A stretch of DNA of 64,000 nt from Pirellulales bacterium. GTDB lineage: Bacteria; Planctomycetota; Planctomycetia; Pirellulales; UBA1268. The stretch lies in contig JBBAVV010000022.1 in assembly GCA_040397545.1 (NCBI GenBank), positions 4,174-68,173 of the forward strand, given 5' to 3'. Position 1 is the stretch's first letter. Each line of letters starts with the position of its first letter. Shown in pieces: positions 3,514 to 61,466 of this stretch. A program made the translations under genes and the position numbers. The notes under the pieces are model-generated. The model did no database searches. It was given only the letters and a program-made list of their open reading frames with translations, and was not told the origin of the DNA.

Positions 3514-6500
3514 ATGGGGCGGTTCATTCCTGAAGTTCGGCACTCGGTTCGGCCGTCGCTCGGCGGTTGGTGTGGAGCCGCTGCCGGCATCGCGGCGATC
3601 GTCGCGTGGGCCTCCCTTCCTTCCGCCCCCGCCGCCGATCAGGGGTCGGGCTCGCAGCCGCTGTGGAGCAGCGCGCTTGTCACCGCTGCCACGCCGACCC
3701 GCTCCGTCGCCTTCGATGTTGAGCTCGGTGGCGCCACGTCGGTGTGGCTCGTGGTCGATGACGGCGGCGATGGGTTCGGGTGCGATTGGGCCGACTGGGT
3801 CGATCCGGTCTTCAAGGGAGCCGGCCTCGAGAAGCCGCTGGTCGATCTCGAATGGAAGCGCGCCGCCGCCGAGTGGGGCAAGGTGCAAAAAGGCCGGAAC
3901 GCCGGAGGGGACGAGCTCAAGCTCGACGGCAAGCTTGTTGCCCGCGGCATCGGCACGCATGCCAATTCGGTGATCGAGGTGGCGGTGCCGGCCGGAGCGA
4001 CGCGGCTGGTGGGACGGGCCGGGCTCGACGACGGCGGCGCCAATCAAGGCTCCGGGTCGATCCGCTTCGCCATTCACACCAAGGCCCCGGCGCTTCGCCC
4101 CAAGCGCGCGGAGGCCGGCGGCGCTGTCGCTCCCGCTGACGGCGCTGCCACGCTCGTGGTCCCGGAAGAACTCGAAGCGACGCTGTTCGCCGCCGAACCG
4201 CTCCTCTCGAGCCCCTCGGATATCGACATCGACGCGTCGGGGCGGGTGTGGGTGTGCGAAGTCACCAACTACCGCGGCCGCAAGGACACGCGGCCCGACG
4301 GCGACCGGATCCTCGTTCTCGAAGACACCGACGGCGACGGCGCCGCCGACACCTCGAAGGTTTTTTACCAGGGGCGCGACGTCGATTCGGCCCTCGGTAT
4401 TTGCGTCATCGGCGACGGGCCGGGGCGGAAGGTGATCGTGTCGTGTGCGCCGGACGTGTTCGTGTTCCACGATGACGATGGCGATCTCGTCGCCGACCGG
4501 AAGGAGTCGCTGTTTACGAAGACCGGCGACCCGCAGCACGACCACTCCGTCCATGCCTTCTCCGTCGGCCCCGACGGCCGCTGGTATTTCAACTTCGGCA
4601 ACACCGGCCACGCCGTCCATGATCGTGATGGGAAGCCGGTCGTCGACCGGATGGGAAATGTCGTCAACGACAGCGGCAAGCCCTATCGGCAGGGGATGGT
4701 GTTCCGCTGCAATCCCGACGGCAGCGACTTCGAGGTTCTCGGCAACAACTTCCGCAACAACTACGAAGTCGCCGTCGATTCCTACGGCACGCTCTGGCAG
4801 AGCGACAACGACGACGACGGCAACCAGGGGGTGCGGATCAACTTCGTCATGGAGGGGGGCAACTACGGCTATGTCGACGAACGCACCGGGCAGGGCTGGC
4901 AGGTGCCGCGGACGAATCTCGAGGCGGAGGTCCCGAAGCGACACTGGCACTTGAACGATCCCGGTGTCGTCCCCAACCTTCTTCAGACCGGCGCGGGATC
5001 GCCGACCGGGATCTGCGTCTACGAGGGGACGCTCCTCCCCGAACGCTTTCGCGGCTCGCTCCTCCACTGCGACGCCGGCCCGAATGTCGTCCGCGCCTAT
5101 CACGTGAAGGCCGATGGGGCGGGCTACGCCGCCACGAGTGAAAACGTCGCCGACGGCTCGGCTGATCGCTGGTTTCGGCCGAGCGATGTCTGCGTCGCCC
5201 CCGATGGCTCGATTCTCGTGGCCGATTGGTATGACCCTGGTGTCGGCGGCCACGGGATGGGGGATGTCGAGAAGGGGCGGATCTACCGGATCGCGCCGCA
5301 CGGCTCGGCTTGGTCGGTGCCGAAGGTCGATCTGGCCTCGATCGACGGCGCTGTCGCGGCCCTGGCGAGCCCGAATCTCTCCACGCGAGCCACCGCTCTC
5401 GAGCGGCTCGCGAAGGAGCCCGAAGCGGCTGCCAAGGTCCTCGCGGCGGCCCTCGATCGCTCCAATGACAGCCGGCACGCCGCCCGTCTGGCCTGGGCGC
5501 TGGGGGGGCTTCCCGGGAAGGGGGCTGCCACTGTGGCGCAGTTGCTTGGATCGAAGGATGAGAACCATCGGATCGTCGGCCTGCGATTGGCCCGCATGGC
5601 CGACGTCGACCCGCTTGGCGCGCTTGAAAAACTCGCGGCCGATCCGTCGGCAGCGGTCCGTCGCGAGGTGGCCGTGGCGCTGCGTGGCGTCGCTGGGCCA
5701 CGGGCCGATGCCGTGTGGGCCAAGCTCGCCAAGGCGCACTCGGCCGGCGATCGCTGGGAGCTCGAGGGGCTCGGCATCGCGGCCCAGGGGCGCGGCAACA
5801 CGAGCCTCTGGGACGGCCGCCTCGCCGCCTGGCTGGCGGCGGTCGGTGACGGCTGGAAGACCCCCGCCGGCCGCGAGGTCGTGTGGCGGAGCCGGGCCGC
5901 GGCGTCGCCGCAGCTGATCTGCGAGCTCCTTGCCGATCCCCGCGTCGGCACGTCGGAGTCGCTGGCGCTCATCCGCTCCCTCGACTTCCAGGAGAGCGCA
6001 GCGGCTGCCGTGGCGATCCGCGATCTCGTCACCCGCCTCGACGCTCCTGATGAAAAACTCCAGGTGATCCTCCCGGAGCTCGTTCTGCGGATCGACCCGG
6101 CCGGTGGGGTCGAAGGGAAGCTCGCCGAGCGGATCGCGGCGGCGGCGGCGGCCGTCCCCGGTACTCAAGCCTTCGTCGATATCATCCAGCGCTTCCGAAT
6201 CAAAAGCCGCGCGGCTGAGCTTGTCGAGCTCGCCGCCGCCGGCGGCACGACCGACCAGGTGGCGGTGTCGGCGCTCGCCGCGGCCCTCGATCTCGGCGCT
6301 GCCGATACGGTGCGCGAGGCGATCGCTGCGGCGAGTGCTGCTCCTGATGAGACGATCGACATCCGTCGCGCGGCGGCCCAGGGGGAGACCCCCGTGTCAC
6401 CGGCCGTCACCAAGGCCACGCGCCTGCTCTCGGCCTGTGGCCTGCGCGGCCAGGGGCCGGCGCTCGAGATCATTCTGGCAACGCTTGCCTCGGCCGAGGC

Positions 6501-44831: not shown

Positions 44832-47129
44832 TTACTTTCCCTTCTTCCCCTTCGCGGTCTTCTTCGCACCGCCCTTCGCGGGCTTCGCCTTCGGCTCGTC
44901 GCCGCCCTCGTCTCCCTCGTCGTCCGCGGCATCCCCTTCGACGGTGGCGATCTTCCCGCGCTTGCCCCTCGTCGGCGGCTTCCGTCCGGCGGAGATGTCG
45001 TCGTCGACCAAATCGGCGGCGGCCTGGGTGAGGCCGACCTCGCCCGGCGCGACGATGATGCAATGCTTGCCCAGATCGAGCTCGTCCTCCTCCTCCACGA
45101 TCGGTCGGCCCCGGTCGTCGTAGCGGATGTCGGCCTGGGCGGTCTTCTTCTTGGCCAGCGCCAGGAGATCCTCGTAGAGCTTCTTGGCGTCGGTGCCGTT
45201 GATCACCGAGACGGCCTGGGCCACCTCGCCGAGGTAACGGAGGAAGATGCTGCGGCGCTGTCCTTCCTGGGCGACGCGAAGGCGGCGCCGCAGATACATG
45301 CCGAGGTTGCGCCCCACGGCCTGGAGGGCGAGGCGGATCTCCTTCTGGATCTCCGGGTAGGAGGCGATCGCCTCCTTCGATTCACTCGTGAACGGCACCC
45401 ACACGCTCGCCATGTGAACCATCACCGTCACCGGCCCCGAGGGGAGGCTGCCACGCGACTGGGAGAGGCCGTAGGAGCGCCAGTTCGTGGCGAGGATCGT
45501 CTGGGTGACGGCGCAGGCGGAATGCTGGAACTGGAGCGGCACGCGGTTGGCGAAGCGCAGCACCGACATGTTCGAGCCCTCGTCCACGTTGACATGCTGC
45601 ATCGCGGAGTGGAGCGTTGCCAGGGCGTCCTTCTTGAGCTTCGAGGGGGACTGGCGGCTGGCGAGCTTCGCCTCGTCGAGGATCTTGTCGGCCGCCTCGC
45701 CGCTCATTCCGGAGAACGTTGTCGTGAGGAACTGCCGCAAGCTGCGGGCGTCGCTCTCGCCGGCGATCTCCGTGAGCGCCTCGAGCGACACTTTCTGCGC
45801 CCCGGGCCCGCCGCCGTAGGCCAGCGACGCCTCGATCACGAACGGGTTGCCCCGGTAGACCCCCGGCGGCCGGGTGGCGGCGGTGAAGAACTCCCCCGGC
45901 ACGACCTGCCGCAATCCCGCCAGCAAACGTGGCTCGCCGATCGGCACGATGCAGTCGGTGGCCGGCGGTGGGATCTTGGTCTCTTGGATCGCCTTGTAGA
46001 GGGCATCGGCCTCGCCGCGGCCGAGCTTCGCGCAGCTGACCCGCGTCGAGAGCTTCGCCGAGTCGCAGATCTTCCGGGCGATGCCGGAGGAGACGCGCGA
46101 GAAGGAGCCGGTGAGGAACTGGGCCAGCGTCAGCTTGGTGTGTTCCTGGAGCATCGTCACGAGGCGACCGAGCTCGATGCCGTAGGGATGCGGCTTGATC
46201 TCCTTCGGCTCCGGTGGCAGTTCGTGCGTCGATCGCTCGAGGATCCGCTCCGGGCCGTCGGGTCCCTGGAAATGGATGCGGCAATGGGGATTGGCGATTG
46301 CCGTCTGCTCGAGATACTCCTCGACGCTGCCACGGCCACGCTGGAACTTCGCCTCCATCTCGATCGTCACGCGTGTGCCATGATCGATCGCGTGGCCGAG
46401 ATCGTTGGCGGCCACCCACTCGATGCCATGCTTGGCCATCAGGTCAGCGCCCGCTTTGCCGGGGGGAAGATCGACGCCCTCCCCCTTGCCGTTGAGGATC
46501 TGCGGTTCGTTGGTCTTCGTGTCGATCCGCAGTTCGTAGTAGTGGGCCGCTTCCTTGACGGAGATCTTCGAGATGATCTTCACCGGCTTGCCGGTCGTGA
46601 GCACGCCGTACATCCCGGCCGCCGAGATCCCGATCCCCTGCTGGCCGCGGCTCATCCGCAGCCGGTGGAACTTCGAGCCGTAGAGGAGCTTGCCGAAGAT
46701 CAACGGGATCTGCTTGCGCACGATCCCCGGGCCGTTGTCCTGCACCCCCATGCGGAAGCGCGAGGTGGAGTCGCTCACGGCTTCGATGTGGACCCAGATC
46801 TCGGGAAGGATGCCCGCCTCCTCGCAGGCATCGAGCGAGTTGTCGACCGCTTCCTTGACGCTCGTGAGGAGCGCCTTGCGGGGCGAATCGAACCCGAGCA
46901 GATGGCGGTTCTTCGCGAAGAACTCGCTGACCGAGATGTCGCGCTGGCCGGCGGCAAGGGTCTGGGCCGTGGCACGGCGCTTCGTCGGCGCGGGAGGGGG
47001 CGCGGGGGCCGGTGTCGACGGCTCCGTGTCGGGCTGGTCCTTGACGGTTGCCGTGGCTGGGGCGGTGGCTTTCTTGACCGCCGTGACGGCACTCGACGCG
47101 GCGGAACGGGGGGGGGGCTGCTTGACCAT
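44832..47129 (-). CDS. top6B: DNA topoisomerase VI subunit B (GHKL ATPase + H2TH + transducer) with low-complexity N- and Lys-rich C-terminal tails
   Basis: 'ISVSEFFAKNRHLLGFDSPRKALLTSVKEAVDNSLDACEEAGILPEI' (Bergerat N-box). 'DNGPGI', 'SRGQQGIGISAAGMYGVLTTGKP' (ATP lid). 'MVHMASVWVPFTSESKEAIASYPEIQKEI' (transducer). The C-terminus reads '...KAKPAKGGAKKTAKGKKGK'. Start at ATG 47129; the ORF is open to 47264. Confidence 0.9.
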   Translation of the reverse strand: MVKQPPPRSAASSAVTAVKKATAPATATVKDQPDTEPSTPAPAPPPAPTKRRATAQTLAAGQRDISVSEFFAKNRHLLGFDSPRKALLTSVKEAVDNSLDACEEAGILPEIWVHIEAVSDSTSRFRMGVQDNGPGIVRKQIPLIFGKLLYGSKFHRLRMSRGQQGIGISAAGMYGVLTTGKPVKIISKISVKEAAHYYELRIDTKTNEPQILNGKGEGVDLPPGKAGADLMAKHGIEWVAANDLGHAIDHGTRVTIEMEAKFQRGRGSVEEYLEQTAIANPHCRIHFQGPDGPERILERSTHELPPEPKEIKPHPYGIELGRLVTMLQEHTKLTLAQFLTGSFSRVSSGIARKICDSAKLSTRVSCAKLGRGEADALYKAIQETKIPPPATDCIVPIGEPRLLAGLRQVVPGEFFTAATRPPGVYRGNPFVIEASLAYGGGPGAQKVSLEALTEIAGESDARSLRQFLTTTFSGMSGEAADKILDEAKLASRQSPSKLKKDALATLHSAMQHVNVDEGSNMSVLRFANRVPLQFQHSACAVTQTILATNWRSYGLSQSRGSLPSGPVTVMVHMASVWVPFTSESKEAIASYPEIQKEIRLALQAVGRNLGMYLRRRLRVAQEGQRRSIFLRYLGEVAQAVSVINGTDAKKLYEDLLALAKKKTAQADIRYDDRGRPIVEEEDELDLGKHCIIVAPGEVGLTQAAADLVDDDISAGRKPPTRGKRGKIATVEGDAADDEGDEGGDEPKAKPAKGGAKKTAKGKKGK

Positions 47130-47136
47130 GCTGCTC

Positions 47137-47170
47137 GGGGAAAACCTGGGAAAACGAGGGGAAAACCGGG
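47137..47170 (-). promoter_or_regulatory. Three phased (10-11 bp) GTTTTCCC repeats immediately upstream of the top6B start codon
   Basis: The plus strand reads GGGGAAAACCT GGGAAAACGA GGGGAAAACCG. On the gene strand the array ends 8 nt before ATG 47129. Confidence 0.35.
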
Positions 47171-47412
47171 TTCTTGGCCCGGTCTCAAACCGGGAACAGC
47201 CGTGTCGATGTCTGGGAAGTTGGGCAGAGTATAGCGGCTTTGCGGGGGGCAGTTCTCCGGCCACGGCGACCCTCCGGGGACCGGGGACCTTGCCTGCTGG
47301 GAAGAGGCGTCACAGGCGTCGTGCCGCGACTGATGCGTCGATTCGTCACCAGCCGAAACCCCTTTGGGCCGGTGAAGACCGGCGCACCAATCGACGTTCC
47401 GGAGGTGATGCG

Positions 47413-51898: not shown

Positions 51899-54049
51899 TC
51901 AGGTCGAGCGGTCGCCGAAGGGGGCGACGAAGCGCGAGGGGCGACTGCTCGTTCCCGCCGCCGGGAGATCGCGGCTGTCGGTCGCGGGAGGGGCCGGGGA
52001 AACCGACGGACCTTTCGGCGCGGCGGGCTGATCCTTCGGCGCGCCGAATTCGAGCGTCGGAGCCTCGGCCTGGACGCCCTTGGCAGTCTCCGCCGGCGCG
52101 GTCGTGGCCGGAGCCTTCGCTGCCGGGAGAGGGATGACCTCGATCTTCTCCAGCGGCAAGGGGGACGAGTCACCGACGATCACGGGCTTCTCAGCGACGG
52201 TCGGGGTGCCGGACGAAGCGGGTGAGCCCACGGCGGGATCGGCATGCTTCAGCGGCGAGGGCCCCCATCCCTCGGCGGCCGGCTTGCCGGTTTCGGCCGG
52301 AGTGACATCGCGGTAGGTCTTGAGGGGGAACGCCTCGGCCGGAGTCAGGGCCGGGGCGGCGGTCGCCGCAGGGGCCGGGCCGGCCGGCTTCGCTGACGGC
52401 AGCGGGGCGATGGCCGTGGCCGGAACGACAGCGCTGGTGGTCGCCGCGCTCCGCGGGGCGGCAGCGGAGACGGTCGCCGCCGGGGCAGCCGGGATCGGAT
52501 TGCCGCACGGATCGAGCGGCACCCGGAGGACGACCGTGCGCGGCGCGCGGACGGTGTACGTGTAGGGGGTCCGCTTCTCGACCACCCGTGGCACCTGGGT
52601 CGTGCGTTCCTCGGTGACGAACTTGCAGACCTGCACGGTCACCGGCTCGACCTTCTCCTCGGTGACGAGCTTGTAGACCTGGACCGGCACCTTGCGGACC
52701 TGCTCCTCGGCCACGTACTTGCAGACCTGGACCGGCACCTTGTTCTCGACCCGCTCCACGACCTTCCGCACGGTCTGCACCGGCACCTGACGGACCTGCT
52801 CCTCGGCCACCATCTTCGTGACCTGGATGGGCACCTGCTGGACGACCTGCTCGTCGACATAGCGGACGGTCTGGACCGGGACCTGCTGGACGACCTGCTC
52901 GTCGACATACTTCATCGTCTGGACAGGAACCTGCTGGATGACCTGCTCGTCGACGTATTTCATCGTCTGGACGGGCACCTGCTGGACGACCTGCTCATCA
53001 ACGTAGCGCATCGTCTGCACCGGCACCTTCCGGGTGACGACGCGGTTGACGACGGTCGTCTCGGGGACCTGCATCGCCACGACGTTCGGCTGGTAGACAC
53101 GGTTGACCTGATTCATGACGACGCCCGGCGTCATCGTCCAGGCGTAGCCCCCAGGCTGCCAGTTCGCCAAACCGGTGTACGGGTTGACCGCCCATCCCCC
53201 CTGCACCCAGCCGAGTTGGGTGCTGCCGGGCGCGACCATGGGCGTCACCTGGTCGACATAGCCGCCGCGGTCGGCGTAGGCCGTTTTGTACGTGGTAACC
53301 GGCTCGGCGACGGTGTAGGCCTCCTCGCGCTCCGCGGTCTCGTAGACCGGCTTGCGGACGACGCTCACCTGCTGCTGCATGACCGTCTCGGCGACCGGCT
53401 TGCGGACAACGCTCACCTGCTGCTGCATGACCGTCTCGGTGACCGGCTTGCGGACGGTCGTCACCTGCTGCTGCATGGCGGTCTCGTAGACCGGCTTACG
53501 GACCATGCTCACCTGCTGCTGCATGACGGTCTCGGCGACCGGCTTCATGACGGTGAACCGCTCCTCGCGCGTCGAGGTCTCGACGACGTCGCGCACTTGG
53601 TCGTAGCTGCGGTCCTCGACAACGGTTTCCCAGACCGGCTTCATGACGGTGGAGCGCTCCTCGCGCGTCTGCGTCTCCCATACGGGACGCTGAACGGTGG
53701 AGCGGCGCTGAGTCGTCTGCGTCTCCCACACCGGCTTGGAGACGGTGTAGGTCTTCGTGTCGTAGACCGTCTCGTAGGTGACGCGGACCGCCTCCATCTG
53801 CCGTTCGTCGTACACCGTCTGGAAGTCGAGCCGGTAAGTCTGGGTCGGGGCCGGGGCGGCGGCCGTGACCGTCTCCCCGCAGCAACCGGCGTCGGCGACC
53901 GGTTGGAGCAGCGGAAGCGGCATGAGCTGCGAGAGGGCGACGAGCATGGCGCCGAGGGTGTCACGACGACGGTGCCGGCCAGACCGGACGGCCGGAACGG
54001 TCAACGTGGACTCCGCGACTCGGGACGGGTTGTGCATGGTGACGACCAT
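51899..54049 (-). CDS. Secreted YTV-type repeat protein with two 16-residue periodic arrays and Ala/Pro-rich C-terminus
   Basis: AGGAGGA RBS precedes ATG 54049. Signal-like 'RRRDTLGAMLVALSQLMPLPLLQPVADA'. Repeated 'KPVxET...' and 'VPVQT.KYVDEQVVQQ' units. 'YTV' motifs occur at 'KTYTVSKPV', 'EAYTVAEPV' and 'YTYTVRAP'. The 925-aa ORF in the track over-extends upstream across the DUF1854 gene. Confidence 0.85.
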   Translation of the reverse strand: MVVTMHNPSRVAESTLTVPAVRSGRHRRRDTLGAMLVALSQLMPLPLLQPVADAGCCGETVTAAAPAPTQTYRLDFQTVYDERQMEAVRVTYETVYDTKTYTVSKPVWETQTTQRRSTVQRPVWETQTREERSTVMKPVWETVVEDRSYDQVRDVVETSTREERFTVMKPVAETVMQQQVSMVRKPVYETAMQQQVTTVRKPVTETVMQQQVSVVRKPVAETVMQQQVSVVRKPVYETAEREEAYTVAEPVTTYKTAYADRGGYVDQVTPMVAPGSTQLGWVQGGWAVNPYTGLANWQPGGYAWTMTPGVVMNQVNRVYQPNVVAMQVPETTVVNRVVTRKVPVQTMRYVDEQVVQQVPVQTMKYVDEQVIQQVPVQTMKYVDEQVVQQVPVQTVRYVDEQVVQQVPIQVTKMVAEEQVRQVPVQTVRKVVERVENKVPVQVCKYVAEEQVRKVPVQVYKLVTEEKVEPVTVQVCKFVTEERTTQVPRVVEKRTPYTYTVRAPRTVVLRVPLDPCGNPIPAAPAATVSAAAPRSAATTSAVVPATAIAPLPSAKPAGPAPAATAAPALTPAEAFPLKTYRDVTPAETGKPAAEGWGPSPLKHADPAVGSPASSGTPTVAEKPVIVGDSSPLPLEKIEVIPLPAAKAPATTAPAETAKGVQAEAPTLEFGAPKDQPAAPKGPSVSPAPPATDSRDLPAAGTSSRPSRFVAPFGDRST
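52595..53026 (-). repeat. Coding tandem array, 9 x 48 bp (16 aa: VPVQT[M/V][K/R]YVDEQVVQQ and diverged copies)
   Basis: Unit boundaries were derived codon by codon. The first four units (about 52835-53026) are near-identical at nucleotide level. Confidence 0.9.
53312..53743 (-). repeat. Coding tandem array with 48-bp periodicity over 432 bp (16 aa: V[R/M]KPVxETxMQQQVxx and diverged copies)
   Basis: The four central units (about 53360-53551) are near-identical. The flanking units are diverged ('VSKPVWETQTTQRRST', 'VQRPVWETQTREERST'). Confidence 0.9.
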
Positions 54050-54118
54050 CGGTTCTCCTCCTGGGAAAGCACTCCCGAGACTAATTCCGTGAACGCGGCC
54101 TTCAAGCGGTTTGTTCAC

Positions 54119-54146
54119 TTTTTTTCCGAGGATTTCCCGGAAAAAA
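54119..54146. repeat. AT-rich perfect palindrome TTTTTTCCG-(9 nt)-CGGAAAAAA between the DUF1854 stop and the YTV gene start
   Basis: Read directly (54120-54128 pairs with 54138-54146). It stands out in GC-rich DNA. The T-run is 5' of the stem on both strands, so it is not a canonical terminator. Confidence 0.5.
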
Positions 54147-54263
54147 CACCCCTCGAGCCGGCGCCAACGGTGTAATCGTTCCAGCTTACGGCGGCCGGCA
54201 AGGGGCGGGGCCGGCGGCGCATGGGGAGAGGGGGGCTGGGGGGCGTGGGGGGTGAGGGGCTGG

Positions 54264-54755
54264 TCACTCCATCGTTCGGTCGAGGAGGCGCCGGCTGTGG
54301 GAGTCGAGGGCGGCGATGGCGGCGATCCGGTAACGGACCCCCGACCCGTCGACGACGAACGCGCTGCCGTCCGCGAGGCGTTCGACGTCGTCTGGGGTCG
54401 CCACCTGGAAGCGCCGCGGGCCACGATCGGTGAGCACCGTCCATTCCGCCGGGTCGCTGTCGCTGATCGCCTCGATCCGGTCGATGACCGGGAGGAATTC
54501 CCGGGAGGACAGTTGCCGCAACAGCTCTCCCCGGAGGGGCTCTGGCAGGTTGCCGATCGTGTCGATCCAGGCCAGCTCGCTGCCGTCCGGGGCGACGACC
54601 GCCACCGGCCCGAGCGGGGCGCTGATCGGGAAGGCACGCAGAAGGTCGATGTCGAGATGGAGGTTGCCAGCGGCATCGACGACGTCGAGCCGGCCGTGGG
54701 GACGGGGGATGAACTGCCAGGCGGCGGGTTCGGCAGGTCGGGAAGGCGGGGCCAT
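54264..54755 (-). CDS. DUF1854 family protein (cyanophycin-metabolism-associated)
   Basis: 163 aa from ATG 54755: 'LDVVDAAGNLHLDIDLLRAFPISAP...LAWIDTIGNLPEPLRGELLRQLSSREFLPVIDRIEAI...WTVLTDRGPRRFQV...VVDGSGVRYRI'. It lies directly downstream of the ABC gene. Confidence 0.8.
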   Translation of the reverse strand: MAPPSRPAEPAAWQFIPRPHGRLDVVDAAGNLHLDIDLLRAFPISAPLGPVAVVAPDGSELAWIDTIGNLPEPLRGELLRQLSSREFLPVIDRIEAISDSDPAEWTVLTDRGPRRFQVATPDDVERLADGSAFVVDGSGVRYRIAAIAALDSHSRRLLDRTME

Positions 54756-54780
54756 AGGTGTCCTCTGGAGGCGGGCCCGG

Positions 54781-57216
54781 TCAGGACGCCGCGGTCGTGT
54801 CCGCGGAGGCTGTTGTCTGGGCGTGGTAGAGGCGGGCATAGGCCCCATCCCGTGCGAGCAGGTCGTCGTGCGTCCCGATCTCGACGATCCGCCCGGCATC
54901 GAGGACGACCAGGCGGTTGGCGCGGCGGAGCGTCGACAGGCGGTGGGCGATGGCGATCGTGGTCCGGCCGGTGACGAGCCGGTCGATGGCCGACTGGATC
55001 ACCACCTCCGTCTCCGCATCGACCGACGAGGTCGCCTCGTCGAGGATCAGGATCGCAGGATCGACCAGGAGGGCCCGGGCGATCGAAATCCGTTGGCGTT
55101 CACCGCCGGAGAGTGAACCACCGCGCTCACCGATGCGCGAGTCGTAGGCGTTGGGAAGGCCGAGGATGAAGCCGTGGGCTCCGGCGGCGCGGGCGGCGCT
55201 GACGACCCGCTCCGGGCCGGCATCGGGGCAGCCATAGGCGATGTTCTCGGCGACGCTCCCGAAGAACAGGAGTGGCTCCTGAAGAACGCAGCCGAGATTG
55301 CGCCGGTAATCCGTCACGGCCAGCCGCCGCAGGTCGGTGCCGTCGACGGAGACGGTGCCGCTGGAGGGATCGAAGAACCGGCAGACGAGATTGGCGAGCG
55401 TCGACTTCCCTGAACCGCTCGCCCCCACCAGGCCGATCATCTCCCCCGGCTCGATCACCAGATCGATGCCATGGAGGATCTCGCGCGTGCCGTAGCGAAA
55501 GTGGACGCCGGCAAACTCGATCCGTCCGCGCACCCGTCCGGGGCGGATCGGGTGCGGATCCTCGGCGACGGTCGGACGGCAGTCGAGGATCTCAAACAAC
55601 CGTTGCGCGCTGGACGAGGCCCGCTGGGCGGCAGGCACCATCCTCACCATCGATTCAACGCGGCCGTAGAACCGGGCGATGTAGGCCAAGAACGCGGTCA
55701 GGCCACCGACCGTCACCGCTCCCTGGAACACCATCCAGGCACCGGCCGCCCAAACCACGAGCAGCCCGATCTCGCTGAACAGACTGACGAGCGGCCCGAA
55801 GAATGCCCACACGGTGTTGACGCGGTCGTTGGCCTCGAGGACATGGTCGTTGGCGCGGCGGAAGCGGTCGGTCTCCCGCGTCTCCTGGGCGAAGGCCTTG
55901 ACGACGCGGATGCCCGGGATCGTGTCGGCGAGAACACTCGAGACCTCGGCCCAAGCGATGTTGGATCGCGAAAAACCCCGATGGAGCCGCTCGCGGACCG
56001 CGTAAACGAGCCACACGACGAGCGGGAAGGGAGCGAGCGTGACGAGGGCAAGGAGCGGATTCATCCACGCGAGCACGGCTGCCGTCAGGAGCACGAGCAT
56101 CGTGTCGGAGAGGAAGCCGATGAGATTGAGCGAGAGGAAATTGTTGATCTGGTCGGTGTCGTTGCTGATCCGCGACATCAGGTCGCCGGTCCGCTTGGCG
56201 GCGAAGAAGTCAAGCGACAGCGCTTGCATGTGCGAATAGGTGCGCACCCGCAGATCGGCCGACACCCGCTCGCTCACCCAGGCGAGGACCCAGGTCTGGG
56301 CCCAGGAGAGGAGCCAGGCGACCAGCGCCGCGGCCACCAACCCCCCCAGATACCACCACACGAGGGCGAAAGGGACGTCCTCGCCGGCCTGCCTCGGGAT
56401 CAGCACGCGGTCGACCAGCGGCATGGTCAGGTAGGGGGGGACGAGGGCCGCCACCGTGCCCGCCAGCGACAGGCCACACCCGAGCAGCGCCATCCCTGCA
56501 TTCGGCCGCGCGAACGTCAGGATGCGGAGGAGCGACCGCCACGACGTCTGGGCATCCCCGACGGGAGCCTCGTCATCGATCTCGGCTCCGCCGAAGCGTG
56601 GGTGGGGGGCGGGGGGCGGCGGAGGGGGATCCTCGGCGGGGATGGTGTCGGACAGAGGGGGGCCGCCCGGCAGCGGTTGGCCGCGCGAAGCGGGGGCCTG
56701 CCGGTGGGTGCGGCGCTGGTCGAAGGCATCCTCGAGGACGTGGATCGGCTTGGCCTGCGCCGGCGTGAACAGCCAGCGGGCGAGCACCTGGCCGGCGCGG
56801 GAGAGCTCGATCCGGCCGACGCCGCCACGGACGCGGACGTCGAGACAACTCGCGTCGTCGAGCAGCCAGGCATGGAGGCCGTCCGGCGACGTCGTCGCCC
56901 CCTCGGCGGAAGCCGGATTGTCGCCGAGCAGGCGCTGGTCGGTGAGCGCCAACCATCCTTCCGTGAAACGCAGGTCGCAATCGAGATCGAACCGGGCGGT
57001 CGCCACCAGGCGCTCGCCGGGAAGGAGCTCGATCCGTTCTGCGATCGGCGCCGCCGGCGGGCGGCGGTGTGCGGCCGGGCCGCCTGCCACGGGACGGCCC
57101 GCGCGGTCGGGGGACGGTGGAGCAAGGGAGGATGAGGGAGGGCGGGTCACGGCGGGATTCGGCTCAAACGTGAGGGAAAACCCGGCGGAGGCGGCCGTGC
57201 CGGCGCGGCCCGGCAC
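54781..57216 (-). CDS. Exporter-type ABC transporter (fused TMD-NBD, MsbA-like) with about 230-aa N-terminal cytoplasmic extension
   Basis: Six-helix TMD ('LLGCGLSLAGTVAALVPPYLTMPLVD...'). Walker A 'GASGSGKST', signature 'LSGGERQRISIARAL', Walker B 'ILILDEATSSVD'. The N-terminal 'LLPGERLVATARFDLDCDLRFTEGWLALTDQRLL' looks PH/GRAM-like. The start is uncertain. Confidence 0.88.
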   Translation of the reverse strand: MPGRAGTAASAGFSLTFEPNPAVTRPPSSSLAPPSPDRAGRPVAGGPAAHRRPPAAPIAERIELLPGERLVATARFDLDCDLRFTEGWLALTDQRLLGDNPASAEGATTSPDGLHAWLLDDASCLDVRVRGGVGRIELSRAGQVLARWLFTPAQAKPIHVLEDAFDQRRTHRQAPASRGQPLPGGPPLSDTIPAEDPPPPPPAPHPRFGGAEIDDEAPVGDAQTSWRSLLRILTFARPNAGMALLGCGLSLAGTVAALVPPYLTMPLVDRVLIPRQAGEDVPFALVWWYLGGLVAAALVAWLLSWAQTWVLAWVSERVSADLRVRTYSHMQALSLDFFAAKRTGDLMSRISNDTDQINNFLSLNLIGFLSDTMLVLLTAAVLAWMNPLLALVTLAPFPLVVWLVYAVRERLHRGFSRSNIAWAEVSSVLADTIPGIRVVKAFAQETRETDRFRRANDHVLEANDRVNTVWAFFGPLVSLFSEIGLLVVWAAGAWMVFQGAVTVGGLTAFLAYIARFYGRVESMVRMVPAAQRASSSAQRLFEILDCRPTVAEDPHPIRPGRVRGRIEFAGVHFRYGTREILHGIDLVIEPGEMIGLVGASGSGKSTLANLVCRFFDPSSGTVSVDGTDLRRLAVTDYRRNLGCVLQEPLLFFGSVAENIAYGCPDAGPERVVSAARAAGAHGFILGLPNAYDSRIGERGGSLSGGERQRISIARALLVDPAILILDEATSSVDAETEVVIQSAIDRLVTGRTTIAIAHRLSTLRRANRLVVLDAGRIVEIGTHDDLLARDGAYARLYHAQTTASADTTAAS

Positions 57217-58310
57217 CGGCCACTCGGGAAAAGATGCGACCCGCCGCTGTCCGAATCAACCGTACACCATCCGCGGCCTGCGCCGTGGCCGGGCGTTGAA
57301 AAAAACGGGGAGGGAGCGGGGAAATAATTTCAAGTTTCTGGGAAGAATCTACCCGGGCCGACCGGCTTCGGGGGCTTCGTCGGTCACCGGATCGGCTGGC
57401 TGCCGACGGATTTGTCCCGCGGAAAACGCTCATTCGCCGGCCGGTTCGCCGTGCTGCGATGGGCTTGGCATGAAATCTGCAGATCTGGTTCTTCAGCGCC
57501 GACGATTCGCATTTCACTCATGGAAGCGTAGACTTGGCGAAGGTGTCGGCGATTCACCGGTGATCCCCGGTGGATCCTGGCACGCTCCGGTGCGGTGGCT
57601 GGTCGGCTCACGGTGATTGCGGTCGCTTCGGCGGCCCGATGGCCGGCAGGGTCGCCCCGATCCGAGCCGGGGTGTTTCGATTCAAGGTGCCGGAGGGAAC
57701 AGGCATCGCGCTCAAGCGTGCGTCCGTGTGACGCACGGCGATGCTCGACGGCCCTCCGGTTGGGGAAAACTTCGACCCATGGCCATCACGGCCGGTTCGT
57801 TGTCGGTCATTCGTCGGCTGCCGCGGAAGGATCTCGATTCGCTCCGCGGCGACGACGGTCGGCTTCCTGCCGAGGGCTTTTCAGCCCCCGGGAGCGTTGC
57901 CAAAGTCTTTTCAGGCCGCTTCCGACCCCTCGTGGGTCGCGGCCGACCCGCCCTTCCAAGCCCTGGCGGATTCCGCCATGGCCCTGGGGGAAGTGGCTTT
58001 TGCGGGTGTGGCTTCGTGATGTCGGCCCGGCTCTTCGGGCCGCCAGCGGTGACGGGAGGCTCCTCCCGTCCACCGATCTCACTTCCATCGCCGGGGTGCT
58101 GGGCGCCGCCCTGACGGCGTCCACAAACACCTCGTTCGATGGTCCCTGCTACCAACCGCTCTGGTCCGGCGACGCGCCGGCCCGGAAGCCTGCGATCGGT
58201 GCAGCCTCCTCCCACAAGGGTCGCCGGAATGTCCGGTAGCCGGGAAGGGACGCACCCCCAACCAGCCGACGCACGCGTCTGCGCTCCGGCCTGAAGTCAC
58301 AAGCCCATCC

Positions 58311-61300
58311 ATGGAGATCACGTCTGTCCGGGTTCTGCGCGGTCCGAACCAGTGGACATGGTTCCCGGTCCTTGAGGCGATTGTCGACCTCGGCCGGCTC
58401 GAGGAGTTCCCTTCCAACACGCTTCCGAACTTCAACGAGCGGATCATGGAGTGGCTGCCGACGATGGTCGAGCACCGCTGCTCGATCGGCACCCGGGGTG
58501 GATTCTTCCAGCGACTCCGCACCGGCACCTGGATGGGGCATGTCCTCGAGCACGTGACGATCGAGCTGCAGTCGCTCGCGGGGTCCGTCGTGCAGTACGG
58601 CCGGGCCCGTGAGACCTCGACCGCCGGTGTCTACCGGGTCGTGGTCGAATACAAGGAGGAGGCCTTCGCAATCGAGTGCCTCCACACCGCCCACCGCCTC
58701 ATCGGCTGCGCCATCTCGGGCGATCCTTTCGACATCGCGGCCGAGATCCGTCGCCTCCGTGCGATCCTCCTCGACGGCCAACTCGGGCCCAGCACCCGGT
58801 CGATCGTCGAGGCTGCCACGGCTCGCGGCATTCCCCACCGTCGGCTCACCGCCGGCTCGATGGTCCGGCTCGGCATCGGTGCCAAGCAGCGACGGATCGT
58901 CGCCGCGGAGAGCGACCGCACCAGCGCGATCGCGGAATCGATCGCCCAGGACAAGGATCTGACCCGCAAGCTCCTCGCCGAGGCGGGGATTCCCGTCCCT
59001 GAGGGGCGGCCGGTGACCGACGCGGCCGACGCCTGGGCGGCGGCGGAGGAGATCGGGGCCCCGGTTGTCGTCAAGCCGCGCTACGGCAATCAGGGGCGCG
59101 GTGTCTCGGTCAATCTTTCGACGCGCGAGGAGGTCGAGCAGGCCTGGAAGGTGGCCCGCGAGGAGGAGTCGACGATCGTTGTCGAACGCTCCTGCCATGG
59201 GCAGGACTACCGGCTGCTCGTCGTCGGCGGGGCGCTGGTGGCCGCGGCGCGGCGCCATCCGCCGACGGTCGTCGGCGATGGGAGGTCGACCGTGCGCGAG
59301 CTCGTCGATGCCGTCAATCAGGACCCGCGGCGGTGCGGCGACCACGCCGGCAGCTTGAGCCCCGTGCCCCTTGACGAGGTAGCGCTGGCGGTGCTCCGCG
59401 ACCAGGGGCTCGATGTCGGGATGGTCCCGGCCGACGGTCAGACCGTGGTCCTGCGGCGCAACGCCAACCTCTCCACCGGCGGAACCGCCGAGGATGTCAC
59501 CGACATCGTCCACCCGGAGGTCGCTGCCCGGGCGATCGAGGCGGCGAGGATCATCGGCCTCGACATCGCCGGCATCGATTGCATGGCGACCGACATCTCC
59601 CGGCCACTGGAGTTGCAGGGGGGGGTGTTCATCGAGGTTAACGCCGGCCCCGGCCTGCGGATGCATCTGGAGCCGGCGGTTGGCAAGCCGCGCAATGTCG
59701 GGGCCGCGATCATCGACACGCTCTTCGCGCCGGGGGATGACGGTCGGATCCCCGTTGCGGCGGTGACCGGCACCAACGGCAAGACGACGGTCGTCCGGCT
59801 CCTCTCCCACATCGCCACCGTCGGCGGCGCCACCGTCGGCACGACCTGCACCGAGGGGATCTGGGTGGGGGGGCGGAAGATCGACAGCGGTGATTGCAGC
59901 GGTCCGCAGAGTGCCCGCCGCGTGCTCGCCAACCCCTCGGTCACCACGGCGGTCTTCGAGACGGCCCGCGGCGGCATCCTCCGCGAGGGCTGCGGCTTCG
60001 ATGCCTGCGACGTCGGCGTCGTCACGAACATCGGCTCGGGCGACCATCTCGGCATGGCCGATATCGATACCCCCGAGAAGCTCGCCTGGGTGAAGGGGGC
60101 GGTCGTCCAGTCGGTGCGGGAATCGGGTGCCGCAGTGCTCAACGGCGCCGATCCGCTCGTCGTCGACATGCAGAAGTGGTGCTCTGGCCAGGTCGTCTAC
60201 TTCTCGCTCGACCCCGATCTCCCCTTGGTCGTCGAGCATCTGGCGAACGGGGGCCTGGCGGCCACGGTCCGCGACGGCTGGATCGTCCTCTGCGACGGCC
60301 CGCGGGAGACGCGCCTGGCGCATCTCGACCGCGTGCCGCTGGTCCATCGCGGGGCGATCGGCTTCCAGGTCGAGAACGTCCTGGCAGCGGCGGCGGCGGC
60401 CTGGCGGCTGGGTGTGCCGCTGGAGCTCGTTCGGCTCGGTCTGGAGAGCTTTCCTGCCGGCCGGACCGGATCGCCGGGGCGCTTCAATCTCCTCTCGCTC
60501 GACGGGGTCGGGATCGTCTGTGATTACGGTCACAACCCCGCCTCACTCGAGCAGATCTGCACCGCGATGGCACGCCTGCCCCACGATCGTCGCACCGCCG
60601 TCTATTCCGCTGCCGGCGACCGCCGCGACGCCGACATCCTCGATCAGGGGAGGATGCTCGCCCGGCACTTCGAGCGCGTGGTGATCTACGAGGATGCCTA
60701 CACCCGGGGGCGCCAGCCGGGCGAGATCACCCGCCTGATCGCGCAGGGGGTGGCGGAGGGAGCTCCGGCAGGGCGGACGGTGGAGGTCGAATTCGGCGGT
60801 GATTGGGCCGCGTCTGCGGCCATGGTCCTCGACGCGGCGCGGCCGGGGGATCTCATCCTTCTTCAGCCCGACACGATCGAGCAGACCATTCCCTGGCTCC
60901 ATGCCCGCTACGGCAGCCGGATGCGCGAGACGACCTTCGACGAGCTCGGCGGCGCCGCCATCGGCGGCCCGGAAGAGCGGCAGCCCGGGCCGAGCGAGCC
61001 GGTCGAGGTGCAAACGGGGCGGCTCGGGCACGGGATCCATGCCTCGCGGCCGATCGCCGCCGGCGAGACGATCCTCCGCGCGTGGGGGCCGATCCTGGCG
61101 AAGCGGAGCCGGCACACGATGCAGGTCGACGCGACGACGCACGTCCTCCCCGACGGGCTCATCGTTCATGCGAATCATTCCTGCGAGCCGAACTGTGTCG
61201 TCCGTATCCGCGCCGGGGAACGGGAGATCGTCCTCGAGGCCCTCCGGGCGCTGGCCGTCGGCGAGGAGCTGACGGTCGATTACGACACGTTCGAATACGA

Positions 61301-61466
61301 GGTCGAGCACCTCGGTGGACCGTGCCGGTGCGGGGCGGCGAAGTGCCGCGGCCGGGTGAGGGGCTACAAGCACCTCTCGGCGGAGGTGAAGGCACGGTGC
61401 AGTGCGATGGTGGTCGACTACCTCCGGGCGATGGATGCCGAGGTGCCGCTTCCCTATGGGGCCTGA
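58311..61466 (+). CDS. cphA: Cyanophycin synthetase fused to a C-terminal SET domain
   Basis: 'MEITSVRVLRGPNQWTWFPVLEAIVDLG...GTWMGHVLEHVTIELQ' (CphA N-domain). 'DKDLTRKLLAEAGIPVPEG...VVVKPRYGNQGRGV' (ATP-grasp). 'VAAVTGTNGKTTVVRLL' (Mur-ligase-like). The same frame continues with no stop into the SET module from about 60999. Confidence 0.9.
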   Translation: MEITSVRVLRGPNQWTWFPVLEAIVDLGRLEEFPSNTLPNFNERIMEWLPTMVEHRCSIGTRGGFFQRLRTGTWMGHVLEHVTIELQSLAGSVVQYGRARETSTAGVYRVVVEYKEEAFAIECLHTAHRLIGCAISGDPFDIAAEIRRLRAILLDGQLGPSTRSIVEAATARGIPHRRLTAGSMVRLGIGAKQRRIVAAESDRTSAIAESIAQDKDLTRKLLAEAGIPVPEGRPVTDAADAWAAAEEIGAPVVVKPRYGNQGRGVSVNLSTREEVEQAWKVAREEESTIVVERSCHGQDYRLLVVGGALVAAARRHPPTVVGDGRSTVRELVDAVNQDPRRCGDHAGSLSPVPLDEVALAVLRDQGLDVGMVPADGQTVVLRRNANLSTGGTAEDVTDIVHPEVAARAIEAARIIGLDIAGIDCMATDISRPLELQGGVFIEVNAGPGLRMHLEPAVGKPRNVGAAIIDTLFAPGDDGRIPVAAVTGTNGKTTVVRLLSHIATVGGATVGTTCTEGIWVGGRKIDSGDCSGPQSARRVLANPSVTTAVFETARGGILREGCGFDACDVGVVTNIGSGDHLGMADIDTPEKLAWVKGAVVQSVRESGAAVLNGADPLVVDMQKWCSGQVVYFSLDPDLPLVVEHLANGGLAATVRDGWIVLCDGPRETRLAHLDRVPLVHRGAIGFQVENVLAAAAAAWRLGVPLELVRLGLESFPAGRTGSPGRFNLLSLDGVGIVCDYGHNPASLEQICTAMARLPHDRRTAVYSAAGDRRDADILDQGRMLARHFERVVIYEDAYTRGRQPGEITRLIAQGVAEGAPAGRTVEVEFGGDWAASAAMVLDAARPGDLILLQPDTIEQTIPWLHARYGSRMRETTFDELGGAAIGGPEERQPGPSEPVEVQTGRLGHGIHASRPIAAGETILRAWGPILAKRSRHTMQVDATTHVLPDGLIVHANHSCEPNCVVRIRAGEREIVLEALRALAVGEELTVDYDTFEYEVEHLGGPCRCGAAKCRGRVRGYKHLSAEVKARCSAMVVDYLRAMDAEVPLPYGA
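60999..61466 (+). other. SET + post-SET domain portion of the cphA ORF
   Basis: 'GHGIHASRPIAAGETIL', 'NHSCEPNC' (61173-61193), 'ELTVDYD', and post-SET 'CRCGAAKCRG' (61322-61351). It is preceded by the Gly/Pro linker 'GGAAIGGPEERQPGPSEP'. Confidence 0.8.

Follow-up and report, generated by a model that had tools for sequence, protein, structure and literature searches.

In a freshwater planctomycete, a complete cyanophycin synthetase of the CphA1 type is continued in frame by a C-terminal SET/post-SET domain, an architecture recognized in a preliminary description of the sequence and upheld here by all profile and structure tests. As judged from sequence comparison, the product would represent a four-module enzyme whose SET domain targets the amino acid that the M domain attaches as side chain, resulting in the storage of N-methylated cyanophycin; this reading is assigned a probability of roughly 0.45. 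Cyanophycin is generally viewed as an Asp-Arg(/Lys) store of simple chemistry, formed by one enzyme. If the reading is true, the coupling of a methyltransferase to the side-chain module would mean that the polymer is tailored in nature, with bearing on its solubility, granule formation and resistance to foreign cyanophycinases and dipeptidases as well as on nitrogen cycling by abundant freshwater planctomycetes, and would provide a one-gene route to modified cyanophycin for biotechnology.

No paper describing a CphA-SET fusion was found in a literature search, and a C-terminal SET extension is mentioned in none of the structural and bioinformatic papers on CphA1 that were searched. The earlier statement that no CphA-methyltransferase fusion had been described thus stands for the literature searched; the protein itself is already present in databases, where ~76 clusters of ~1050-aa orthologs carry the plain name 'cyanophycin synthetase'. 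In a 2021 review of modified cyanophycins, the methylated form appears solely as the product of chemical (formaldehyde) treatment; the fused SET domain may represent the first enzyme found to tailor cyanophycin in nature. Whatever its substrate, the fusion broadens the range known for bacterial SET domains. Jointly with BurB and with the SETs fused to ATP-grasp or saccharopine-dehydrogenase domains, the cphA-linked SETs point to a sizeable clade engaged in amino-acid and small-molecule chemistry, not chromatin.

Gene structure and domain architecture

The fusion gene occupies positions 58311..61466 (+) of the window, i.e., the whole 64,000-nucleotide stretch of planctomycete DNA that was analysed. 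As originally proposed, it forms one uninterrupted ORF of 1051 codons plus TGA, leading from ATG 58311 to TGA 61464-61466 and coding for 1051 aa. The start codon at 58311 is right, since residue 1 aligns with residue 1 of TeCphA1, and GC3 is 0.87-0.89 across every domain. The CphA1 N domain (residues 1-160; 58311..58790, +; PF18921, 133 bits) harbours the primer-generating HxxEH motif (H77-V-L-E80-H81; 58539-58553, +) and is followed by the ATP-grasp G domain, which extends the poly-Asp backbone (residues 161-480; 58791..59750, +; detected by Pfam and NCBIfam), and by the Mur-ligase-like M domain, responsible for adding Arg at the Asp side chain (residues 481-866; 59751..60908, +; Mur_ligase_M and Mur_ligase_C) and contains the P-loop GTNGKTT (residues 487-493; 59769-59789, +). 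A flexible linker of low identity, raised dN/dS and low pLDDT (residues 867-897; 60909..61001, +), ending in GGAAIGGPEERQPGPSEP (residues 880-897), connects the M domain to the SET and post-SET domain (residues 898-1020; 61002..61370, +), which is supported by PF00856, AF2 and Foldseek. The C-terminal helical extension (residues 1021-1051; 61371..61463, +) is common to standalone relatives and BurB.

The three CphA modules named in the preliminary description were all found by Pfam (Cyanophycin_syn N, residues 25-132; ATP-grasp, 212-316; Mur_ligase_M, 485-696; Mur_ligase_C, 723-852), and the equivalog cutoffs were exceeded (NCBIfam NF010623, 1186 bits versus cutoff 877; TIGR02068, 1057 bits versus cutoff 850). 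Both equivalog profiles cover residues 1-866 only, and the alignment to TeCphA1 (7wac) stops at residue 867; canonical CphA1 therefore ends where the Gly/Pro linker starts, as had been surmised. Residues 1-867 align end to end with TeCphA1 (7wac) and SuCphA1 (7lg5) at 700 and 697 bits, respectively, and have in common with these enzymes all three domains (N, G, M), the two P-loops, the HxxEH site and the catalytic Lys/Arg residues. In contrast to CphA1, the fusion protein possesses ~185 additional C-terminal residues, composed of the flexible linker and the SET/post-SET methyltransferase.

The TeCphA1 key residues K220, K261, R309 and R323 (PMC9427784) correspond to K215, K255, R301 and R315, all of which are invariant, as is K491 of the M domain, the counterpart of TeCphA1 K499. 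The ARGG, DHLG, DYGHN and AGDRR motifs of the M domain are likewise conserved. The HxxEH motif, defined as primer-generating in PMC9262961, is optional in CphA1 and marks primer-independent enzymes; it is present in the fusion protein, with H77, E80 and H81 invariant among 51 sequences. On the basis of these residues, the three known CphA1 active sites are all intact.

SET domain

Every SET hallmark quoted in the preliminary description was located, in the same order: GHGIHASRPIAAGE (residues 906-919) at the start of the SET motifs with GxG at 906-908, NHSCEPNC at 955-962, ELTVDYD at 986-992 and the post-SET cluster CRCGAAKCRG at 1005-1014 (CxCGxxxC at 1005-1012). A further motif, RHTMQV, lies at 934-939. 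Pfam assigned PF00856 to residues 906-991 with 41.7 bits versus a gathering score of 22.4. Residues G906, H956, S957, C958, P960, C962, E986, D990, C1005, C1007 and C1012 are invariant in the SET clade, and Y991 is kept in at least 90% of the sequences; the SET domain keeps every cofactor, zinc and catalytic-Tyr motif. Modelling with AF2 yielded a confident fold for the domain (pLDDT 91, pTM 0.85), for which Foldseek retrieved 352 PDB matches at E <= 1e-3, the best 50 of 352 all being SET domains. From the invariant motifs and the confident predicted fold, the SET/post-SET part is predicted to be a catalytically competent SAM-dependent methyltransferase. The C-terminal extension is modelled with helices at residues 1024-1029 and 1036-1043, and its Y1037 and L1038 are nearly invariant. 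The full-length AF2 model (pTM 0.47), with its disordered linker, is uninformative as to where the SET domain docks.

The best PDB match of the SET part by sequence is BurB of B. thailandensis (PDB 9l4t, 9l4v), a standalone 172-aa SET-domain L-methionine S-methyltransferase of the DMSP/malleicyprol pathway, matched over the whole domain at E 4.5e-13. BurB was also recovered by hhalign (99.4%, E 5e-21, 34% identity, 119 columns) and ranked first in Foldseek (probability 1.0, TMq 0.67, E 3e-10). Both proteins have in common the NHSC/HSC motif, the four cysteines of the Zn site and a helical extension at the C-terminus, the alignment running through 'GYKHLSAEV'; the substrate/cofactor loop R70-L-H72-T73-L-Q of BurB aligns with S933-R-H935-T936-M-Q, and its catalytic-site Tyr of the D-Y motif, Y124, with Y991. 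Among the published SAM contacts of BurB (R42, A44, H72, H93, R133, H138), R42, H72 and H93 are conserved as R904, H935 and H956, whereas A44 is changed to H907, R133 to L1001 and H138 to the variable R1006. In the preliminary description, only Lys or Arg of a polymer or protein had been considered as target. Since the substrate of BurB, the closest characterized SET protein, is a free amino acid, small molecules have to be counted among the candidate substrates as well.

The eukaryotic histone lysine methyltransferases MLL1/KMT2A, ASH1L, SETD2 and NSD share the SET fold and the post-SET zinc cluster with the fusion protein, Foldseek assigning a probability of 1.0 and a TM of 0.57-0.65. The C-terminal half (NHSCEPNC...ELTxDY...CxCGxxxC) is very similar, whereas alignment is poor in the N-terminal half and in the SET-I region, and AWS, pre-SET and partner-binding modules are missing; the context is a non-ribosomal polymer synthetase rather than chromatin. 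With Foldseek E values of 1e-9 for MLL1, ASH1L and SETD2 versus 3e-10 for BurB, histone methyltransferases are structurally almost as close as BurB, and the fold can therefore not discriminate the substrate class.

Genomic context and alternative gene arrangements

Divergent to the fusion gene, the window contains a cyanophycin metabolism-associated ABC transporter gene (54781..57216, -; NF052233, 993 bits versus cutoff 880) and, next to it, a gene for a cyanophycin metabolism-associated DUF1854 protein (54264..54899, -; NF052234, 136 bits versus cutoff 150 and hence sub-threshold, E 9e-40), both being known cyanophycin-associated neighbours. The ABC transporter neighbour is common to fused, unfused and short-G loci, and PF08909, representing the DUF1854 neighbour, was found in orthologous loci. 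An Rfam scan of the 1.1-kb gap upstream of the fusion gene for a SAM riboswitch or similar element returned one sub-threshold chance match only.

The survey of planctomycete cphA genes for fused versus split SET, outlined in the preliminary description, revealed both forms and, in addition, fusions to a dead-G/live-M paralog and cases of probable secondary absence. In the split form (L095/L096), which belongs to another lineage, cphA is followed after 97 nt by a separate SET gene. In the short-G fusions (L102, P0245/L177, P0292, L100), the G domain has lost its P-loop, K215, K255, G-omega and the EVN motif; every M motif is kept, SET is carried and a complete cphA adjoins, which in L177 codes for 848 aa. 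At least three independent gene arrangements tie the SET subfamily to cphA, and where the synthetase splits into two paralogs, SET remains with the intact-M, dead-G copy. The cphA-linked SETs cluster in about 73% of NJ bootstraps, the supports in the SET tree (68-74%) being rough as some saturated distances gave NaN; BurB, used as outgroup, falls outside this clade. Some SETs of the clade (L018, L098) lie in loci without a nearby cphA, and no conserved neighbour of the nearest standalone SETs was found among 27 loci. The SET profile further retrieves SET domains in fusion with a Ddl-type ATP-grasp and with a saccharopine-dehydrogenase domain.

CphA2 enzymes polymerise beta-Asp-Arg by means of an active G domain, their M domain being reduced. 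The short-G/SET paralogs are the mirror image of this arrangement (G dead, M intact) and carry a SET domain in addition. Like CphA2, a precedent for CphA paralogs with one of two ligase domains decayed beside a full CphA1 (PMC10273328), the paralogs L102, P0245 and P0292 have one decayed ligase domain and a full CphA1 alongside. No description of the dead-G/live-M/SET form was found in the literature searched.

In an NJ tree of CphA cores, calculated without bootstrap, close relatives that lack SET are interleaved with fused ones; SET loss rather than multiple gain is the more parsimonious of the two explanations. Since close relatives do without it, SET is dispensable for polymer synthesis. 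No CphA positions or lysines tracking the presence of SET were found in the comparison of fused with unfused relatives; as no CphA position differs systematically, the M site is without adaptation to a methylated substrate. A 150-aa ORF following an unfused cphA (L090) was considered as SET relic and turned out to code for a zinc-ribbon/TM protein.

Predicted function of the SET domain

The proposed enzyme would combine a primer-independent CphA1 (N domain with HxxEH, G domain for the backbone, M domain for the side chain) and its mobile M-lid with a ~30-residue tether and the SET/post-SET methyltransferase. CphA1 is a tetramer in which a mobile lid, Mlid, covers the Arg-adding site, and it is Mlid to which the SET domain is joined in the fusion protein. 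The SET domain would methylate the pendant Lys or Arg after ligation, or the free amino acid just before ligation; a pendant Lys or Arg resembles a free amino acid, because the free alpha-carboxylate is still present after ligation. Methylation would alter the solubility or packing of the polymer, or how readily it is attacked by cyanophycinases and isoaspartyl dipeptidases. Action on the side-chain amino acid is inferred from the free-amino-acid substrate of BurB, the attachment to Mlid and the retention of SET with the M-intact paralog. SET enzymes are known to catalyze Lys-N, His-N and Met-S methylation, and we know of none for arginine methylation; arginine being the main cyanophycin side chain, this counts against the reading. 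Further points against it are the two BurB SAM contacts that are not conserved (R133, H138), the lack of CphA positions differing between fused and unfused relatives, the dispensability of SET in close relatives and the SETs of the clade that are remote from any cphA. In its favour, Lys commonly occurs as a minor side chain (PMC8560796).

Held more tentatively is the wider proposal that the planctomycetes with the fusion make enzymatically N-methylated cyanophycin. The SET domain would then be not only the first natural tailoring enzyme known for this polymer but also the first known SET with a non-ribosomal poly-amino-acid, namely its side chains, as substrate in place of a protein or free metabolite, and the dead-G/live-M/SET paralogs might represent dedicated 'side-chain decorating' enzymes working on the backbone of the neighbouring CphA1.

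Alternatively, the SET domain could be a protein-lysine methyltransferase that acts on CphA (in cis or across the tetramer) or on a partner such as the ABC transporter or the DUF1854 protein and regulates activity or localisation of the synthetase rather than polymer chemistry. Methylation of protein lysines is the activity of nearly all characterized SET domains, matches to MLL1, ASH1L and SETD2 exist by sequence as well as by fold, and a flexible tether suits cis or trans action on a large complex. The Phe/Tyr-switch position, the role of which is known from DIM-5 and MLL1, is occupied by V, F or I, resembling multi-methylating lysine methyltransferases. However, no lysine of CphA is enriched in the fused forms relative to unfused ones, the closest characterized homolog acts on a small molecule, the SET domain aligns in its N-terminal half to BurB and hardly to MLL, and side-chain chemistry accounts more easily for the retention of SET in the M-only paralog; protein-lysine methylation is therefore considered unlikely.

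Quite improbable is a BurB-like methylation of a free metabolite, e.g., of Met to S-methylmethionine, with a product outside the polymer and a fusion that serves to co-regulate two nitrogen or methyl-pool activities. The first rank of BurB by sequence, profile and fold and the correspondence of H935, T936 and Y991 to its H72, T73 and Y124 speak for such an activity, but identity to BurB amounts to only 31-34% and BurB lies outside the cphA-linked clade. Genes of the burI, burD and burE type (SMM decarboxylase, aminotransferase, dehydrogenase) were not found among the annotated ORFs of the window, and it would be left unexplained why SET has become linked to the cphA M module repeatedly and independently.

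Little probability is likewise attached to a catalytically silent SET domain serving as SAM/SAH sensor, oligomerisation module or polymer-binding module. Such a role would be in line with the oligomeric state of BurB (tetramer or dimer) and of CphA1, with the close relatives dispensing with SET and with one sequence (P0137) in which an internal deletion takes out NHSC; against it, residues needed for catalysis or cofactor binding only (NHSC, Y991, GxG and the Zn cysteines) are invariant or nearly so across ~77 sequences as well as the short-G and split forms.

Conservation and integrity of the fusion

The fusion was detected in ten GTDB species representatives, all of them MAGs of uncultured planctomycetes, of which nine (L008-L013, L015-L017) contain it full-length, gapless and collinear, with 70-97% identity and without N across the junction; the tenth (L014) is also in frame across the junction, a contig end cutting the gene at residue 167. 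Full-length fusions with the junction in one frame were also present on four metagenome contigs (L099, L101, L103, L104), and ~76 protein clusters of 1044-1079 aa all contain PF00856. Distances of the CphA and SET parts co-vary (r = 0.86). A dN/dS of 0.28 shows purifying selection on the SET part, the corresponding values being 0.16-0.20 for the CphA domains, 0.30 for the C-terminal extension and 0.54 for the linker. Mean pairwise identity of the ~30-residue linker is 0.475 versus ~0.80 for CphA, pLDDT drops below 50 at residues 881-889, and both ends are conserved.

An assembly, frameshift or missed-stop artefact uniting two separate genes, as might be suspected from near-identical GROS21 scaffolds where N runs exactly at the junction give rise to a 115-aa 'standalone' SET call, is effectively refuted by the 13 gap-free, independent full-length contigs in frame, the ~76 protein clusters with 65-99% identity and a translated linker conserved at both ends. 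The 115-aa protein in question (P0014, 96% identity), at first sight a split gene in a sister strain, is due to a scaffold gap over the junction (100 N in L001, 10 N in L003). Many matches of 213-300 aa that resemble short proteins are pieces of fused genes cut by a contig end or gap. In L001, an antisense shadow ORF was also picked by the gene caller.

Architecture and conservation of the cphA-SET gene

A single ORF of 1051 codons with the stop codon TGA extends over 58311–61466 (+) of the window, as claimed in the preliminary description, and all motifs named there were located at their places in the product. Pfam detected the cyanophycin-synthase N domain (residues 25–132), ATP-grasp (212–316), Mur_ligase_M (485–696), Mur_ligase_C (723–852) and SET (PF00856; 906–991; 41.7 bits vs. 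a gathering score of 22.4). The NCBIfam cyanophycin synthetase models NF010623 (1186 vs. cutoff 877) and TIGR02068 (1057 vs. cutoff 850) span residues 1–866 only, and the alignment to the solved structure of TeCphA1 (7wac; 700 bits) stops at residue 867. Both parts are thus recognized by their profiles, and canonical CphA1 ends close to the linker start, in accordance with the preliminary assignment. Since GC3 is 0.87–0.89 in each domain and equal to that of adjacent genes, the SET part is not a compositionally foreign insert.

The catalytic residues published for TeCphA1 (K220, K261, R309, R323 and K499; PMC9427784) correspond to K215, K255, R301, R315 and K491, none of which varies among 51 aligned sequences, and the HxxEH motif, which belongs to the primer-generating site of the N domain (PMC9262961), is present as H77-V-L-E80-H81. 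By these sequence features the gene encodes a predicted complete CphA1. With all of them retained, the SET domain, which extends from the end of the mobile lid (Mlid) of the site where arginine is added, would represent a fourth catalytic module.

In pairwise comparisons of 77 fused sequences, the three domains of CphA share a mean identity of ~0.80, compared with 0.67 for SET and 0.48 for the linker. Pairwise dN/dS across 10 genomic orthologs is 0.16–0.20 for the N, G and M domains, 0.28 for SET, 0.30 for the C-terminal tail and 0.54 for the linker; SET is under purifying selection. Distances of CphA and SET co-vary (r = 0.86), as expected for one stable fusion. Invariant or nearly so are the GxG motif, R904, H935-T936-x-Q938, N955-H-S-C958-x-P-x-C962 and G984-E-E-x-T-x-D990-Y991 in SET, and C1005-x-C1007-G-x-x-x-C1012-R in post-SET. 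Modelled alone, the SET domain is confidently predicted (pLDDT 91, pTM 0.85). In the full-length model (pTM 0.47) the linker is disordered (pLDDT < 50 at 881–889), so SET is predicted to be a folded unit on a leash, without a predicted docking pose. Judged from motifs and models, the protein carries an intact-looking SET domain on a predicted flexible tether. In the fused ortholog P0137 (995 aa) an internal SET deletion takes out the NHSC motif, owing either to decay of SET or to faulty assembly.

Genomic context

The cphA-SET gene is divergent from a gene for the NCBIfam cyanophycin metabolism-associated ABC transporter (993 bits vs. 880), whose DUF1854 partner scored slightly below cutoff (136 vs. 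150 bits), and convergent with an MlaD/MlaF/MlaE operon. Neither a second cphA nor a cyanophycinase gene was found in the window. The gap between the two divergent genes is unusually long (1.1 kb; 57217–58310), and an Rfam scan revealed no element within it. Genes for PSCyt1/2, PSD1, DUF1501 and YTV proteins identify the window as planctomycete. The large protein encoded at 51899–54676 (−), adjoining the DUF1854 gene, contains repeated 'VRKPV.ET' and 'VPVQT.KYV.E' units (planctomycete-specific Pfam YTV repeats); its true start is probably internal, because the long ORF overlaps the DUF1854 ORF. An 810-aa protein combining a topoisomerase VI B transducer domain with a GHKL ATPase, uncommon in bacteria, is encoded at 44832–47264 (−).

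Relationship of the SET domain

Among solved structures, BurB (9l4t) is the closest in sequence (E 4.5e-13) and aligns across the whole domain, whereas alignments to MLL, ASH1L and SETD2 cover mainly the C-terminal half. Profile comparison with BurB yielded a probability of 99.4%, with 34% identity across 119 columns, and Foldseek ranked BurB first (E 3e-10, TMq 0.67), with MLL1 and ASH1L close behind. BurB is a 172-aa SET enzyme converting free L-methionine to S-methylmethionine, in which R70, T73 and M132 hold the amino acid through main-chain contacts, H72 contacts SAM and Y124 lines the site (PMC12542666). In the alignment its R70-L-H72-T73-L-Q corresponds to S933-R-H935-T936-M-Q and its Y124 to Y991; R133 and H138 are not conserved. 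The domain is therefore a predicted genuine SET/post-SET enzyme whose nearest characterized relative acts on an amino acid; neither fold nor sequence fixes its substrate.

Other proteins matching the same SET profile include P0299 (656 aa; D-Ala-D-Ala-ligase-type ATP-grasp plus two SET domains) and P0307 (735 aa; saccharopine-dehydrogenase C-domain together with two SET-like repeats, of which Pfam scored just one). The search was topped by large proteins such as P0186–P0188 (1415–1479 aa; 5–9 tandem SET domains) and by many two-SET proteins. At L091:5437–7516 a standalone SET gene (P0033) overlaps the terminal part of a gene fusing GNAT to CN_hydrolase; this may be an operon joining SET to amide/amine chemistry.

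Alternative arrangements of cphA and SET

The fused and split forms anticipated in the preliminary description both occur, alongside two situations it had not foreseen: fusions to a short-G paralog and absence of SET. In the split form (loci L095/L096; 58% GC), the cphA gene, whose G and M motifs are intact, closes at a stop codon and is followed after 97 nt, on the same strand, by a 152-aa SET gene, 41% identical to the window SET. Short-G proteins (L102, L100, P0292 and P0245, the last from locus L177 of an NCBI planctomycete MAG; 954–986 aa) consist of N domain, degenerate G, M and SET. Their G domain has lost K215 and K255 together with its P-loop, the EVN metal/ATP motif and G-omega, a module of ~75 residues; GTNGKTT, ARGG, DHLG, DYGHN and AGDRR are retained. 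The short-G genes at L102:2508–5468 (no ATP-grasp Pfam match) and L177:7001–9943 are directly followed by complete cphA genes (L102:5627–8020 and L177:10282–12828), whose M domains carry variant motifs (DYAHN; 'SGC-NRRD' in place of 'AAGDRRD'); L177 also has the DUF1854-ABC pair upstream, as at the window locus. These tandems suggest that labour is divided between two synthetases.

Unfused planctomycete CphAs (886–925 aa; Ala/Pro-rich tail end) are as similar to the window core (74–77%) as the fused ones and share the DUF1854-ABC...MlaD/F/E synteny; no SET gene was found near these syntenic loci. Their interleaving with fused CphAs in an NJ tree without bootstrap suggests SET loss. In the SET-domain tree, with BurB as outgroup, cphA-linked SETs (full fusions, short-G fusions, the split form and a few standalone relatives, e.g., L018 and L098) cluster in 73% of bootstraps, apart from actinobacterial standalone SETs and BurB. 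The linkage of SET to the M module is recurrent. Taken together, these arrangements indicate a functional link between cphA and SET, with SET accompanying the side-chain module where the labour of the synthetase is divided.

Proposed function

Tentatively, at a probability of about 0.45, SET would methylate the basic side-chain residue. Methylation could follow ligation, acting on pendant Lys or Arg, which would resemble the free amino-acid substrate of BurB because the α-carboxylate remains free, or could just precede it; N-methylated cyanophycin would result by either route. Among the minor side chains Lys is common, and it has a strong effect on solubility (PMC8560796). Counting against side-chain methylation, relatives can dispense with SET, no residue of CphA tracks its presence and SET enzymes are not known to methylate arginine. 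Methylation of a protein lysine, in CphA itself or in a partner, is rather unlikely, given that BurB acts on a free amino acid. BurB-like methylation of a metabolite unconnected with the polymer has little probability, as has a non-catalytic SET serving as sensor or in oligomerisation.

Occurrence and annotation of the fusion

When one genome was scanned for each GTDB species, 10 representatives matched from the CphA tail onward; all resemble planctomycete MAGs, and most bear the label Pirellulales or Planctomycetia. In nine, the fusion is a collinear ORF of 1050–1052 codons free of gaps and N (70–97% identity); in the tenth (L014) the contig end cuts it at residue 167. Four metagenome contigs also harbour the gapless fusion (one 98.9% identical to the window), and ~76 clusters of 1044–1079 aa in a 5.8-billion-protein collection contain all CphA domains plus PF00856. 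This gap-free, in-frame recurrence leaves an artefactual fusion with a negligible probability.

A separate 115-aa SET gene in near-identical scaffolds of one sample series (GROS21) was rejected as an artefact, an N gap lying exactly over the linker/SET junction (100 N in L001, 5856–5955; 10 N in L003, ~716–725). Unlike these, the N-run of L006 (~4661–4689) falls within the M domain. Such breaks may stem from differences between strains or from the very high GC content of the linker (GC3 0.97). An antisense shadow ORF of 794 codons, typical for a 70% GC genome, covers cphA at 58149–60533 (−) of the window. Since the public gene call of L001 replaced cphA-SET by such an antisense ORF (632 aa, no Pfam match) and the SET stub, the fusion is under-represented in public protein sets.

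Fused sequences are already public but undifferentiated, the clusters being labelled, if at all, just 'cyanophycin synthetase'. In agreement with the preliminary description, a search of open-access papers and preprints yielded no account of CphA fused to SET. Nor did it yield one of cyanophycin being methylated enzymatically, the only open-access paper containing both terms being an unrelated Legionella genome paper; the mirror-image companion (dead G, live M, SET) also appears undescribed. The closest species representative, L008 (CALQRA010000117.1; 96.6% identity, 68% GC), is labelled 'Candidatus Kuenenia stuttgartiensis', L016 Chitinophagaceae and L012 Planctomicrobium piriforme; these three labels look doubtful.
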